Assembly: GCF_056746865.1 (NCBI RefSeq)
Contig: NZ_JBWKMP010000002.1
Source: a plasmid
DNA: 64,000 bases
Strand: one strand, 5' to 3'
Positions 3,863 to 63,491 of the stretch are shown here, piece by piece. The translations under genes and the position numbers were made by a program. The notes beneath the pieces were generated by a model. That model worked only from the letters and a program-made list of their open reading frames with translations. It did no database searches and had not been told where the DNA came from. How positions within the stretch are numbered: position 1 is the stretch's first letter; every line of letters begins with the position of its first letter.

Positions 3863-4924
3863 TCAAACGCCTGGAACGTAGCGAACACAACAGTCATTGT
3901 AACGCCACAACATATAGACATAATTATCGTTGCCTATTTTTTTGCGCCCACCTTTAAGGGTTGACCAGTCGTGTACCGAATCACCAAGACGATGACAGCA
4001 ATCCGGTCCCTTCGCCTCAGGAGTAGGGAAAAGCATTGAAAGCCGATACTGGGAACGTGGTGTAAAGTATTCCCACGTTTTCTCACACATTGCGTCTGCT
4101 CCCATCGTTCGCATCAGCATGCCTTGGCGATGTAGTTTTGTCAGAAGACGCTGGGTAATCAGTGAACTCGTCCTTACAGCGTCATCATTTGCGTAAATGT
4201 GGCCGGTTAATGGGTAAAGGTTGCCATCGCATCCGGCACAAAAGTATGCAGCGAGATTATCCTTTCCTGCTGTTACTGCTACACAGTCAGCAGCGCACAC
4301 CATTGAGGCAATTGGGTTTGCAAAAACTACTGCCTCGGGATTCAGGACGAGTGTAAGCAGATCACTTTCCCACATAGGGTCCACTTCGCTTATATAGGTC
4401 AGGCTGGCATCTATATAGGGTTCAGCAGTGCACTCGCCAATAATCAGTAATTTGAGCATTGTCATGATTGGGAACTCCCAAAGATGAACATCGTAAAATC
4501 CGGCTTCAGTTGCTGTCATTGGCTGATTAGTGTTGCTTTTACCAATATCAAACTGCGATTTTTGAAGCATCGTGCCTTCAAGAAAGGGGCTGCACCAGGG
4601 GCTCTTTACAACTTCTACAATCTTCACCGGCTGAAAGAAGCTCAATTGCCAACCTATTTCCGGTACGCCGTTCTGATCTGTGCAGTAGCAACCCGGACGT
4701 GAAGGTGCAGCGCCTTCTGGAGCAGCCCCTATGCCCATTATCCTCATGGGAAAAATGCAGCTCCAACAGATATTCTTAATCAAGCCCTGCCACACTCCAG
4801 CTGACTGACACATAGCCCCAGGGACTCCAGCATCTGCTGCCATAGCCATACCAGGTATAGAAAGCGAAAGCATAACTGCTACAATGAACTCTAAAAGTAA
4901 CTTTTTGAATTTTTTCACCATCAT
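3863..4924 (-). CDS. trhU: TraU-family pilus assembly / DNA transfer protein
   Basis: Signal peptide MMVKKFKKLLLEFIVAVMLSLSIPGMAMA and conserved Cys pattern (ICWSCIFPMRIMG). It sits between the traW-like and traN-like genes. I start it at the internal ATG ATG (4924); the track ORF start at 5023 adds 33 unlikely residues. Confidence 0.85.
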   Translation of the reverse strand: MMVKKFKKLLLEFIVAVMLSLSIPGMAMAADAGVPGAMCQSAGVWQGLIKNICWSCIFPMRIMGIGAAPEGAAPSRPGCYCTDQNGVPEIGWQLSFFQPVKIVEVVKSPWCSPFLEGTMLQKSQFDIGKSNTNQPMTATEAGFYDVHLWEFPIMTMLKLLIIGECTAEPYIDASLTYISEVDPMWESDLLTLVLNPEAVVFANPIASMVCAADCVAVTAGKDNLAAYFCAGCDGNLYPLTGHIYANDDAVRTSSLITQRLLTKLHRQGMLMRTMGADAMCEKTWEYFTPRSQYRLSMLFPTPEAKGPDCCHRLGDSVHDWSTLKGGRKKIGNDNYVYMLWRYNDCCVRYVPGV

Positions 4925-5062
4925 GCTCACTTGGATGTAATAAATGTTGCAACACTTTCGATATAGTCGACGGCTTTGGTAAAATAACTTCTCATCTGGT
5001 CCGGATAATTTAGCGTCAGCCATGTTGCAAAGAGAGCGCCTATAATAAATCCGAGTTTCATA

Positions 5063-6586
5063 TTATTTTTCCTCTGAAAGATTTGGGGCTCCGATTCCAC
5101 GGACTTCTGCCTCGCTAAACAGGGTGATCCGGAATTTATCTTGGTCAGTAGTTATAAGCGCAGGTGTATTTTTAATCTGAAAGCGTGAGATAATCTGTTC
5201 GTTTACTTTAAACACCTTACCGTTAAATTTTTCACGTAAATCATTTAGGTGATCCCATCCATTATCTTTTTGGATACGGGTAAACATTGGCATTACTTTT
5301 CCACTACCCAGACGTTGTCGATACTGCTGCTCAGCCCATACCAGCTGGCCCGGATTGAGTGGATCGAAAATTATCATCGTCAGGTTTTGAGGAAATCTCG
5401 AAAGTGGATTAATCAACTCACCGGCGGAAGCTATTACACGGCCCTGCTTATCTTTTACGTCCTGAGTGACCCTCACTGTAGGGTCAATTAAAAATTCTTT
5501 GTGTTCCTGGGCAGGAGGGAGATCGACCATCCATTGATTTTTCCAGGTGTCCGCAACGGCCCTTTTTTTTGCACCTTCCCAGTCATATTTTTGTGCGCGT
5601 TCTTCCAGTTCTTTAATGATGCTCTTTTCTTCAACGGGATAAATCGTACCAGCAACAGGAAAAATGTCCTGATCGGGTTTTTTAGCAAGTTCTCGCTGAA
5701 AAAACTCAACGTTGAAGGACCCTACCATTTTTGCAAAACGAGCTTGCTCCCGAGAAATAATTGTCGGTACTTGAGTTACTTGATACTGACTGAAGCTATC
5801 AGGATCAATTGTAATCAAAGGAGATTCAAATTTTCCTTTGACAATCATTTGGTTTATTGCTGCCTGTGTCTCTGGTAGCCGAGTAGTTCCTTTCTTTAGA
5901 CCATTGAAAACTACACGAGCTTTATGCTCTGAGGCCGTACGTAAAAGGTCTTCCAGTACATAATCCGGTAAGCTAAATGAAGCAAAGATCGTTATACCAT
6001 TTTCAGTTGATAGTGCTTCTTCACGTGTGCTATCCATTTTTCTTTCGAAGTCAGCAGCTGTGATGCCCGAGGAACCAAACAATTTTTCGATATTTTTAGA
6101 TTGTCCTCGCATGACTTCCGGCTTATTTTCCACAGCTTTCAGAGCCGCTTCATTAAGGCTGGCGTTTTCCTGAATTTCATCACGTCTTCTAATTATATCG
6201 TTGACAGCATCAGAGTTATTACTTTGGGCCCTTATAGCCTGGGTATGGTCTATAACTGCTTGAACACTATCCGCATTCATACCGGGCACGTAACCACGGT
6301 TTGTTTGCCTGCTCAGGTCCTGGTTTTTTTTGAGTGCTTCAGCTTGCGCAATGTACTTCTGCACATCTGGTGAATTTAGCGTAGCATCAAGGCTAAGAGC
6401 CCCATCTGGCTGCTGTGCACCTTTAGCCTGAGCGCCAAGCCCTTTTGCTTGCTGAGCGATTAGGTCAGCATCATGTTGATACTCAGTGCTTGCATTTGTA
6501 TTACTTAAAACTGCACATAACGCAAGTCCAGGAAGTATTGGTAAATATTTTTTATTTACATTAAAAGATCGCATATGTTTTCCCAA
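5063..6586 (-). CDS. trhW: TraW/TrbC-like periplasmic pilus assembly protein (IncH TrhW)
   Basis: 507 aa with signal peptide LCAVLSNTNAST. It sits between the peptidase gene and trhU. From memory, IncH TrhW is a TrbC-TraW fusion of about this size. Confidence 0.7.
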   Translation of the reverse strand: MGKHMRSFNVNKKYLPILPGLALCAVLSNTNASTEYQHDADLIAQQAKGLGAQAKGAQQPDGALSLDATLNSPDVQKYIAQAEALKKNQDLSRQTNRGYVPGMNADSVQAVIDHTQAIRAQSNNSDAVNDIIRRRDEIQENASLNEAALKAVENKPEVMRGQSKNIEKLFGSSGITAADFERKMDSTREEALSTENGITIFASFSLPDYVLEDLLRTASEHKARVVFNGLKKGTTRLPETQAAINQMIVKGKFESPLITIDPDSFSQYQVTQVPTIISREQARFAKMVGSFNVEFFQRELAKKPDQDIFPVAGTIYPVEEKSIIKELEERAQKYDWEGAKKRAVADTWKNQWMVDLPPAQEHKEFLIDPTVRVTQDVKDKQGRVIASAGELINPLSRFPQNLTMIIFDPLNPGQLVWAEQQYRQRLGSGKVMPMFTRIQKDNGWDHLNDLREKFNGKVFKVNEQIISRFQIKNTPALITTDQDKFRITLFSEAEVRGIGAPNLSEEK

Positions 6587-62071: not shown

Positions 62072-63253
62072 ATGAAGCTATTTTCAATTTCATCCCGGGA
62101 TACAAGCATGGACGCGATGTTTTATATCCAGGCCAGTACTAAACAACAGGCAAGTTACATATTTAGTACCCTTTCCCCGAAGCCTACTGCGAACTGCCAG
62201 CTTACAGATTTGCAGAATGAGACGGTCGTCCCTTCCATAAGCCCTATTTCGCTTTCACTTAACCCCTGGTCGATCAATTCCCAGTCCCGAACCCGGGAAT
62301 TGAGTATGGCCACGCATGGTCTTAACCTGATCTGTGCAGTCACGGATGAGCATACCCGTCAGATAGTAGACTTTTGCGATAACCTTGGACAGCAGCTTAA
62401 GGATCCGGACGACAAAAGCGCCTGGGTTAAGCTCATTAATTCTGAATGCGCATTGCTTAATTCTCCGCGTTTATATCCCGTTCTGCTGGAGCCGGAGACA
62501 CCGGCACAATTTGAAATCTTTGTGCCAGCTCCGGAAGATGGCGATCACGACACGGTTATAGCCAGCGTTGTTGAAGAATGTTTCGGAGATGAATGCCGGT
62601 ACAGAGCAACGGACAAAGCTTTTGCAATGTCGGAAAAGCCAATCATCAGGCTGGAAGCACATTTCAATGACAAACGGGAAAAGGTTTTAGAACTGACCTT
62701 TTCCAGTTTCAACCTTTCACTTTCTGCGTCCGTGTATGAACACCAGCTACGTCAGATTTTATTACTTTGCGAAGATTTTGGCGTAAGGCTTCAGGGTAGA
62801 GCCGGGGCATCCTGCCACATCAATATGCGCAGCGCTTACCGTCGTCTTGCACATGTCGGCACCGGCTCTCGCCCAGGTGATGGGAGTGATGTGCGGGGCT
62901 ATACCTCATCTAAAGAGCAAAAAGATGTTAAGGGGCTGCTCGATAAGTCAACCAGGGGAAGTGAGCTTGTACCGGCGAGGCACGGGCAGCAGTTTAACGG
63001 TGTCTTAGTGAATGCCACACCCGCACCGGCCACGACGGGTTTTATATACCTGTCGCATGATTTTCCGGAAGGCCAGTTTATGATGACAGCCGAGGTGTTG
63101 CATGTTGGAATAACACCGGGCGGGATCTACTACATTGAAACACTGGACGGATACCGGTTTATCGTTACAGCGTTTGAAAAGGGATTAATGAACGGTTTAA
63201 GGGAGTTTTTGGCTGTAAATGAGGACTACTTTAAGTATTACCGCTGGTCTTAG
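62072..63253 (+). CDS. Hypothetical 393-aa protein in the position of the antitoxin
   Basis: It starts 8 nt after the higB-like stop. I saw no helix-turn-helix or other motif. Confidence 0.5.
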   Translation: MKLFSISSRDTSMDAMFYIQASTKQQASYIFSTLSPKPTANCQLTDLQNETVVPSISPISLSLNPWSINSQSRTRELSMATHGLNLICAVTDEHTRQIVDFCDNLGQQLKDPDDKSAWVKLINSECALLNSPRLYPVLLEPETPAQFEIFVPAPEDGDHDTVIASVVEECFGDECRYRATDKAFAMSEKPIIRLEAHFNDKREKVLELTFSSFNLSLSASVYEHQLRQILLLCEDFGVRLQGRAGASCHINMRSAYRRLAHVGTGSRPGDGSDVRGYTSSKEQKDVKGLLDKSTRGSELVPARHGQQFNGVLVNATPAPATTGFIYLSHDFPEGQFMMTAEVLHVGITPGGIYYIETLDGYRFIVTAFEKGLMNGLREFLAVNEDYFKYYRWS

Positions 63254-63478
63254 CGTCTGACCTGAAACCGGTAGGCCAGGGAAGGCAACCGGGAAAATGC
63301 AATTTAACCTGATCCTCTCCCTACCACTACCTTTACCCACGTATAATAGCCCGACCAAATTATAATGCCCGATCACCGCATTGGCTGAAACCACACATAT
63401 TCTTCTTAGGCCTCGCCTGATGAACTTCGACCACAAGACAAAGGAACGTAACTAATAAATAAAATTTATGAGCTGCAC

Positions 63479-63491
63479 AAAAGTTACTTTT
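63479..63491. promoter_or_regulatory. Dispersed palindrome AAAAGTTACTTTT upstream of the last gene
   Basis: Perfect 13-mer, 170-180 bp upstream of the ATG at 63660. Confidence 0.4.

Follow-up and report, generated by a model that had tools for sequence, protein, structure and literature searches.

A dispersed palindromic DNA site conserved on IncHI plasmid backbones, with an orphan ParB-family protein as candidate binder

The DNA analysed here, a stretch of 64,000 nucleotides of plasmid contig NZ_JBWKMP010000002.1 (NCBI RefSeq assembly GCF_056746865.1) referred to as the window, carries 19 exact copies of the palindrome AAAGTNACTTT, the core of the 13-mer AAAAGTNACTTTT. Comparison with related plasmids identified this motif as a cis-element of the IncHI backbone that is under strong purifying selection at the DNA level. 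Because it recurs about every 3.5 kb and stays intact where the surrounding DNA has diverged, the palindrome is almost certainly a protein-binding site, and it is predicted to be a high-specificity double-stranded DNA site for a symmetric protein dimer; the extended consensus of the site is g-A-AAAGT-W-ACTTT-T-c. On balance, the copies are best explained as binding or loading sites for an orphan ParB-family protein encoded within the window (ParB-like B, 40844-42007), acting in a plasmid-wide system of the KorB or VirB kind, and this assignment is made with somewhat more confidence than doubt. The motif appears to be undescribed so far. Its strings were found in no paper of the library searched, no paper there tied IncHI plasmids to a KorB-like operator set, and the main text of a recent orphan-ParB survey names neither IncHI nor R27, all of which agrees with an earlier sequence-only reading of the window that knew of no such motif for H-type plasmids. 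The new element proposed here is a dispersed palindromic site set for a ParB-family protein, with B as its candidate binder.

Window identity and abundance of the palindrome

By its gene content and sequence identity, the window is IncHI2 plasmid backbone. It contains Tra2, two partition modules, both replicons, and three immunoglobulin-like (Ig-like) genes, and over 12 kb it matches numerous IncHI2A plasmids from Salmonella, E. coli, and Enterobacter at 100% identity. The annotated record NZ_CP149147.1 is collinear with the window; genes were placed via the RefSeq record, and the compartments of the sites (coding or intergenic) were assigned on that basis.

The 19 exact copies of AAAGTNACTTT compare with a mean of 0.23 and a maximum of 2 in dinucleotide-preserving shuffles, and the full 13-mer occurred 10 times where 0.01 copies were expected. 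The sequence-only reading had put the chance expectation at about 0.1; the computed value is higher but still low, and the claim that the count lies far above chance was borne out more strongly than it had first been put. All 19 exact cores stand at the positions given in that reading, some of which refer to the first base of the 13-mer and so precede the core by one base, and both of its one-mismatch copies, 11684 (core 11685) and 36267, were found as well. One-mismatch copies in the window number 10, with about 4.5 expected by difference, and the finding of 19 exact copies but just 10 with one mismatch points to unusually sharp specificity; the corresponding numbers for R27 at 0, 1, and 2 mismatches are 46, 25, and 146. 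Among palindromes of the form X5-N-X5', AAAGTNACTTT is the sole enriched one in the window, the runner-up having 2 copies, and its half-sites pair solely in inverted orientation with a 1-bp spacer. It is also the most over-represented 10- to 12-mer when tandem arrays are excluded. The consensus of the pooled sites is g/c-A-AAAGT-W-ACTTT-T-c/g, and conservation in the sequence logo stops 2 bp to either side of the core. A longer repeat element, of the repetitive extragenic palindrome (REP) or miniature inverted-repeat transposable element (MITE) kind, was rejected because nothing is conserved more than 2 bp beyond the core and half of the copies lie inside genes.

Placement relative to genes

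Nine of the sites in the window are intergenic, nine are wholly intragenic, and one lies across a stop codon 5 bp ahead of the next start. The sequence-only reading had cautioned that part of the excess might reflect amino-acid or codon usage, and this caution did not hold. The nine coding copies compare with 0.98 in synonymous-codon shuffles (a nine-fold excess; maximum 5 among 500) and with 0.15 in codon-order shuffles, while the nine intergenic copies, in 14.4 kb of DNA, compare with 0.04 in shuffles, so that codon or amino-acid usage is ruled out as the cause. Seven of the coding copies are read as K-V-T-L/F, and seven of the eight K-V-T-[LF] peptides in window genes use precisely the motif codons. 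Given the coding excess over the shuffles and this codon use, the DNA motif appears to dictate the choice of codons as well as the tetrapeptide itself, and not the reverse.

Enrichment between genes is moderate in the window, where 9 of 19 sites fall in the 22% of the DNA that is non-coding (P = 0.014), and clear in R27, where 22 of 46 sites fall in the non-coding 20% (P = 3e-5). R27 also has 22 sites between -300 and +50 of a start codon, compared with 13.6 for random positions (P about 0.008).

Distribution and conservation on IncHI plasmids

A search of related plasmids, as the sequence-only reading had proposed, found the motif throughout. Exact copies number 54 in the 275 kb examined of R478 (IncHI2), 46 in 180 kb of R27 (IncHI1), 23 in each of two IncHI3 regions of about 40 kb (pNDM-MAR and a second plasmid), and 6 in a 21-kb IncHI-like contig of Photorhabdus heterorhabditis. 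Across the IncHI backbone this amounts to one copy per about 3.4-3.9 kb. Of the R478 sites, 51 belong to the 172 kb of backbone and only 3 to the 103 kb of accessory DNA (P = 6e-8), the latter comprising ter, IS26, mer, Tn7-like sil/pco, ars, Tn10, and insertion sequence (IS) elements. Metagenomic IncHI-like loci carry 1.7-10.7 copies per 10 kb, and two short, distantly related contigs carry none; samples of the E. coli K-12 chromosome (50 kb) and of an IncC plasmid (40 kb) had no exact copy. The motif is a feature of the whole IncHI backbone, from IncHI1, IncHI2, and IncHI3 to the Photorhabdus relative.

Genes that can be aligned between R27 and IncHI2 plasmids are about 70-75% identical. R478 has 23 sites in the regions alignable with R27, of which 21 are exact in R27 and a 22nd is split only by an alignment gap. 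The 80 bases flanking the aligned sites average 67% identity, the central N varies freely and is different in many pairs that are otherwise conserved, and the neutral expectation for keeping the ten specified bases at this flank divergence is about 2%. Of seven mapped coding sites, six are kept from IncHI2 to IncHI1; one rsp site persists in IncHI3, and the N-terminal site of htdO recurs in Photorhabdus. By reading of the sequence, the site at the start of htdO falls in another reading frame in IncHI3, which argues for a positional function at the level of DNA. The sites are thus largely conserved in position among related plasmids, and the earlier proposal that they are targets of a global regulator stands as far as a real, selected cis-element is concerned; the identity of the regulator and its transcriptional role are matters of inference.

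The orphan ParB-like proteins

Two genes of the window had been described as ParB/KorB-like in the sequence-only reading, and both proved to encode ParB-family proteins, as judged from HTH_ParB and TIGR00180 matches, PDB sequence matches, and a structural model of B. The two proteins, ParB-like A and ParB-like B, are paralogs that share Box I (GFN-S/P-RE), a Box II-like segment (RQGH-C/T-R), Box III (DGNR..L-S/N-P), and a helix-turn-helix (HTH), and in B the TIGR00180 match covers the N-domain and the HTH. The best PDB sequence matches of both are Noc and Spo0J. In an AlphaFold2 model of B, made with homologs, residues 21-250 reach a per-residue confidence (pLDDT) of about 80 or more. Foldseek matched this model best, among PDB structures, to ParB complexes with nucleotide (cytidine triphosphate, CTP), Noc, and KorB; with TM 0.58 on target, KorB 8qa9 led the significant matches in target-normalised TM-score. 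PF08535, the Pfam domain of KorB, was not detected in A or B; it was detected in an IncC KorB-domain protein used as control.

B is the better candidate of the two, since it is present in all motif-bearing lineages examined and has a site upstream of its gene in each. Only one ParB-like gene is found in each of the IncHI3 and Photorhabdus loci examined; it aligns better with B and stands at the syntenic position of B. A was not detected in these loci, which retain the motif, and B is the only ParB-like paralog found in every motif-bearing lineage examined. All loci with a B homolog of more than about 34% identity bear the motif, at 1.7-10.7 copies per 10 kb. In IncHI1 and IncHI2, the site upstream of the gene is the same imperfect variant, AAAGTACCTTT, some 90 bp ahead of the ATG; exact sites lie at -117 in IncHI3, at -125 in the metagenomic locus L040, and just before the annotated ATG in Photorhabdus. 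In IncHI3, eight sites are clustered in the 2.7 kb immediately upstream of B. From gene order and open reading frame numbering, we infer that B corresponds to the 'partition protein' R0042 of R27. R0042 gave the highest signal in the table of thermoregulated genes and is among the most highly expressed genes of R27, and it is induced at 25 °C, in an htdA mutant, and under conjugation-promoting conditions (PMC7366339).

If B is the binder, its dimers would recognise the palindromes and bind or load there, by analogy with KorB, VirB, BisD, and Noc, and might spread into neighbouring DNA as a CTP-dependent clamp. B would in this way modulate transcription plasmid-wide, either as a silencer (KorB-like) or as an anti-H-NS factor (VirB-like), with promoter-proximal targets that would include the trhA pilin operon, the oriT/R-H region, the Ig-like genes, and its own promoter. 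At one site per 3.5 kb, most backbone promoters could be influenced, a reach that would fit the published joint response of most R27 genes to HtdA and temperature. Plasmid-wide control does exist in R27, where loss of htdA derepresses 139 of 181 expressed genes (PMC7366339).

Several observations weigh against the assignment to B. With Box I N-(S/P)-R and Box III N-R..L-(S/N)-P retained, Box II of B reads G-H-C-R instead of the arginine-patch G-E-R-R, which makes CTP binding uncertain. No ParA or KorA-like partner adjoins the gene, whose neighbours are a Dam-family methylase on the opposite strand and a DUF4942 gene, with further methyltransferases nearby. The putative recognition helix of B is poorly to moderately conserved across IncHI2, Photorhabdus, and IncHI3 despite the identical motif. 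Since the motif-bearing lineages share much of the IncHI backbone, co-occurrence cannot single out B, and scans of genomes and metagenomes for joint change of protein and motif returned IncHI-like loci only, all with the same motif. A B homolog of IncC (30% identity) has no associated dispersed palindrome, and the palindrome that IncC does carry lies at the promoter of a different, KorB-domain protein. As to a role in transcription, about half of the sites lie within genes, and among those between genes in the window, three (7258, 35105, and 52267) adjoin gene 3' ends; for these, loading or architectural sites fit at least as well as classical operators. Scans for sigma-70 promoters and terminators around the intergenic sites were uninformative. 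The earlier description of the motif as enriched at operon heads was right about intergenic and promoter-proximal enrichment and overstated for the set as a whole.

Comparison with known systems

The closest likeness is to the KorB operator OB (TTTAGCSGCTAAA) of the IncP-1 plasmid RK2, and the analogy drawn with it in the sequence-only reading fits in several ways. Both motifs are 13-bp palindromes of odd length with a free or near-free centre, dispersed in near-perfect copies over a conjugative backbone at promoter-proximal, distal, and intragenic positions and with sharp specificity, and both KorB and B have a ParB N-domain and HTH fold and a site upstream of their own gene. The differences lie in the sequence (TTTAGCSGCTAAA as opposed to AAAAGTNACTTTT), in the lack of a PF08535 match in B, and in number, with about 50 sites per IncHI plasmid and 12 OB operators in RK2, about a four-fold difference. 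Many IncHI sites are, moreover, embedded in coding sequence and constrain codons. The korB gene stands in an operon with incC/parA and korA, whereas B is an orphan with GHCR in place of GERR in Box II, and the IncHI host plasmid, unlike IncP-1, is H-NS-governed and thermosensitive. KorB itself is a CTP-dependent sliding clamp that acts in long-range silencing (PMC11790492, PMC13584720).

VirB, with its site virS, resembles the B candidate as an orphan ParB-like protein on a large, H-NS-silenced, thermoregulated enterobacterial plasmid, and the parallel extends to the thermoregulation of IncHI transfer through H-NS/Hha and to the temperature response of R0042. VirB is known from few sites, confined to virulence promoters, and VirB structures are not among the Foldseek PDB matches listed for B. 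On the Shigella virulence plasmid, VirB acts in a CTP-dependent manner from inverted-repeat sites upstream of its target promoters and spreads against H-NS (PMC10770331). A third precedent comes from a conjugative element, ICEclc of Pseudomonas, whose ParB-like CTP clamp BisD activates transfer genes over long range (PMC12409273). BisD differs in belonging to an integrative element with a bistable transfer-competence programme, for which no plasmid-wide array of about 50 sites has been described.

Noc with its NBS sites and chromosomal ParB with parS share with the IncHI set the dispersed, near-perfect palindromes and the sharp specificity. They differ in serving chromosomal nucleoid occlusion and segregation, and parS lies near the origin beside parAB, whereas the parAB genes of IncHI Par1 are devoid of the motif. 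MatP of E. coli recognises matS (GTGACRNYGTCAC), a 13-bp palindrome dispersed over a replicon domain in and between genes; this small chromosomal protein, an organiser of the Ter macrodomain, is not of the ParB family, and no MatP-like gene turned up on the plasmid, although no search aimed at MatP was made.

Alternative binders and roles

That another plasmid-encoded protein binds the sites is unlikely. The candidates would be A, the TrhR/TrhY/HtdA circuit, or a conserved hypothetical protein (zinc-finger-like or of 277 aa) encoded beside A and B. Many backbone genes are common to all motif-bearing plasmids, so that co-occurrence is not specific to B, and A likewise has a ParB fold and HTH, but the failure to detect it in the IncHI3 and Photorhabdus loci examined, which keep the motif, argues against it. 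The circuit is favoured by sites in or beside genes of the htdA operon and upstream of the R operon, and by the derepression of most R27 genes on loss of HtdA, which implies plasmid-wide control (PMC7366339). However, the F-operon promoter, the standard reporter for TrhR/TrhY/HtdA (PMC7366339), has no site at up to one mismatch in R27 or two in R478, and Pfam shows no recognisable DNA-binding domain in any of the three proteins, which are therefore unlikely binders; the sites also reach far beyond the tra genes. The trhR and trhY genes lie in Tra1, outside the window.

An architectural role for B or another ParB-like protein, in compaction, positioning or pairing, 'self' marking, or the protection and organisation of DNA during or after conjugative entry, is unlikely but a serious alternative. 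It would account for the intragenic half of the sites and for the several at 3' ends, and it has an established precedent in Noc and chromosomal ParB, which use dispersed palindromes non-transcriptionally (PMC12704722); the induction of R0042 under conjugation-promoting conditions would also suit it. The density of sites is fairly uniform over the backbone, but their spacing is not significantly regular (coefficient of variation 0.80 versus 0.97 for random positions, P = 0.07), and the significant intergenic and promoter-proximal enrichment would be left over. Two systems for partition are already present on IncHI plasmids, and no stretch of the window without a site is longer than the Par1 locus. 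Par1 ParB with a ParABS centromere was itself rejected as an unlikely source of the motif: no exact site lies between those at 17570 and 28957, a span that holds parAB and its upstream array, Par1 has that repeat array of its own, and its ParB belongs to the PF08775 'ParB family' type.

It is improbable that a host DNA-binding protein of the Enterobacterales recognises the motif and that the plasmid has accumulated sites to recruit it, as no copy occurs in the E. coli K-12 sample and the hosts span Enterobacteriaceae, Serratia, and Photorhabdus. Literature searches returned nothing relevant on an Enterobacterales regulator of this site, and we know of none. A conserved host factor would fit easily with a motif that is identical across lineages whose ParB-like proteins share only 34-47% identity; in chromosomal ParB/parS systems, proteins about 30% identical can retain one site. 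Finally, an epigenetic or restriction-related target of a methyltransferase (Dam-like, DUF4942-associated, or other) is suggested by the genes that flank B, and is very improbable, because avoidance, and not an 80-fold enrichment, is usual for restriction targets, the methyltransferase genes that adjoin B in IncHI1 and IncHI2 are missing from the corresponding IncHI3 and Photorhabdus loci, where the motif is kept, and 10-12 specified bases exceed the length of typical Type II targets.

Individual sites and neighbouring features

The sites of the window are listed in Table 1 together with the two ParB-like genes and the genes with altered reading frames. Recurrent targets are the region upstream of trhA (two sites in IncHI2 and IncHI1, four in IncHI3), the divergent oriT / R-H region of R27, the region upstream of Ig-like gene A (two copies), and the first codons of trhU and htdO. 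The copy in Ig-like gene C is the least certain, as it is not conserved in R27. Two placements of the sequence-only reading were revised: the site given there at 28956, at the start of a dsbC-like gene, is intergenic by the RefSeq annotation, and that at 12333, given as intergenic or junctional, is a junction site that overlaps the stop of the second gene of the AN operon. The labels htdF and htdK used for the genes downstream of htdA follow the published order of the htdA operon (PMC7366339).

Table 1. Copies of the palindrome, ParB-like genes, and altered-frame genes in the window. Exact denotes AAAGTNACTTT; exact 13-mer denotes AAAAGTNACTTTT.
Position	Feature	Context in the window	Related plasmids
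4894..4904	exact (13-mer 4893-4905)	in trhU, 14 nt past start codon; K-K-L-L-L, frame 2	R27 trhU site at same +14 offset (9209)
7258..7268	exact	intergenic; 82 bp past rsp 3' end, 184 bp upstream of trhF (RefSeq; trhP in R27 literature)	R27 site in same region (11569)
8441..8451	exact	rsp codon 1069; K-V-T-L	kept at aligned R27 codons
10685..10695	exact	rsp codon 321; K-V-T-L	kept in R27 and IncHI3 (protein segment 57% identical)
12334..12344	exact (13-mer 12333-12345)	across TGA stop of 141-aa gene (htdF by gene order), 5 bp before start of htdK (by gene order)	
12528..12538	exact 13-mer	141-aa gene codon 76; K-V-T-F	kept in R27
15495..15505	exact	intergenic, between divergent parM and metallophosphoesterase genes whose starts are 197 and 155 bp away, respectively	no site within 2 mismatches in equivalent R27 region
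17570..17580	exact	173-aa gene codon 46; K-V-T-L	kept in R27; one mismatch in Photorhabdus
28957..28967	exact 13-mer	intergenic (RefSeq); 89 bp upstream of htdT start, 18 bp downstream of preceding gene	kept in R27 (32957)
31266..31276	exact	htdO codons 3-6; M-G-K-V-T-L	htdO N-terminal site also in Photorhabdus and IncHI3 (L008 14145)
34320..34330	exact 13-mer	AC operon head; pilin gene trhA starts 242 bp downstream	same intergenic region: two sites in R27, four in IncHI3
35105..35115	exact 13-mer	110 bp past 3' end of RepB-family initiator gene, 1027 bp upstream of trhA	R27 counterpart 39447
36578..37633 (+)	ParB-like A	351 aa; paralogous orphan ParB-family protein; adjoins RepB-family initiator; second, weaker candidate	
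38889..38899	exact 13-mer	277-aa hypothetical gene codon 24; K-V-T-F	kept in R27
40753..40763	imperfect, AAAGTACCTTT	about 90 bp upstream of ParB-like B start; candidate autoregulatory operator	identical variant at same place in R27
40844..42007 (+)	ParB-like B	387 aa; orphan ParB-family protein; HTH_ParB, TIGR00180	R0042 'partition protein' of R27 by gene order
45501..45511	exact 13-mer	between the divergent 597-nt gene and Ig-like gene A, 221 bp ahead of the latter	
45566..45576	exact 13-mer	second copy in the same divergent region, 156 bp upstream of Ig-like A	
52267..52277	exact	intergenic; 103 bp past 3' end of Ig-like gene B	
54491..54501	exact	Ig-like gene B codon 101; K-V-T-L	kept in R27, not in IncHI3 or Photorhabdus
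59311..59321	exact	Ig-like gene C codon 297; frame 1, S-D-F; sole site with central G on + strand	not kept in R27
63480..63490	exact 13-mer	intergenic; 226 bp past stop of 393-aa gene	
12753-13206, 16605-17442, 17953-18343, 18405-19409, 31284-32556, 42255-43946, 49297-50383	altered-frame genes		

Four one-mismatch copies, AAAGCAACTTT followed by AAAGGCACTTT three times, stand about 43 bp apart at 38840-38978 of R27 (L003), between trhA and the RepHI1A initiator gene, and look like iteron-type repeats that resemble the palindrome. A staphylococcal-nuclease-like gene has a site 14 nt into the gene at 40893 of R27 (L006) and at 152722 of R478, the same offset as in trhU; the gene is probably that of the 'partition protein' R0153, which was co-induced with R0042 in published microarrays. 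The htdK product (window 11775-12329, R27 16077-16640) has a Pfam match at or just under threshold to Whirly, a single-stranded DNA-binding transcription factor (22.3 and 24.6 versus a cut-off of 23 bits).

Other repeats were found near the partition and replication genes. A 249-bp tandem array of about 10.4 copies at 21064-23606, upstream of parA, has units that carry a conserved TGGCGATTAAGGGGGTTAAAT and is probably the Par1 centromere or a regulatory array; its IncHI3 equivalent consists of AACAACCCCGTTGTT repeats at 25.9-28.3 kb of L008. Downstream of repHI2, 81-bp tandem repeats (about 9 copies, 50872-51612) contain inverted TCACTACCGTTGTCA / TGACAACGGTAGTGA, and short 21-bp repeats lie upstream of it at 48556-48613 and 48979-49057; both sets look like iterons of the RepHI2 replicon. 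The IncC plasmid NZ_CP079693.1 (L010) has a dispersed 18-bp palindrome of its own, ACTTTCACATGTGAAAGT, with 7 exact core copies in 40 kb (297, 3881, 4340, 9655, 12991, 24035, and 27450), and the parA / KorB-domain operon has one of them 62 bp upstream. The outer bases of this palindrome (ACTTT...AAAGT) resemble the IncHI half-sites, and it looks like a separate operator set of the KorB type.

Compared with the RefSeq references, htdA, two genes for hypothetical proteins, parB, trhK, the DUF4942 gene, and repHI2 differ in length by 1-2 bp or contain internal stops. Indels left uncorrected in the assembly seem a likelier cause than seven pseudogenes at once.

Implications for IncHI plasmids

As carriers of multidrug resistance, IncHI1, IncHI2, and IncHI3 plasmids are of major importance, with multidrug-resistant typhoid, mcr-1, and NDM as examples, and the motif offers a simple marker with which IncHI backbone can be told from acquired DNA. 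Transfer of these plasmids is temperature-controlled via H-NS/Hha and HtdA-TrhR/TrhY, and no cis-element explains the joint response of most backbone genes (PMC7366339). A palindrome of about 50 copies together with a conserved, highly expressed orphan ParB-like protein is a testable candidate for the missing regulatory layer.

A wider proposal can be made only tentatively, and it is possible without being probable: IncHI plasmids may have a plasmid-wide network, unrecognised so far, in which about 50 near-perfect sites would load a ParB-CTPase-fold protein co-induced with conjugation (R0042 and its orthologs), which would spread from them across a backbone that is AT-rich and silenced by H-NS, and would act either against silencing, as VirB does, or as a silencer over long range, as KorB does. 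Such a network would provide a cis and trans basis for the unexplained plasmid-wide, temperature-dependent regulon of R27, and would mean that selection has been strong enough to dictate K-V-T-L/F tetrapeptides in unrelated proteins. If B is a CTP-dependent clamp, the IncHI set would be the largest plasmid array of ParB-type sites known to us, and if B and the motif do form one system, it would be a clear case of a DNA-binding motif that constrains protein sequences.

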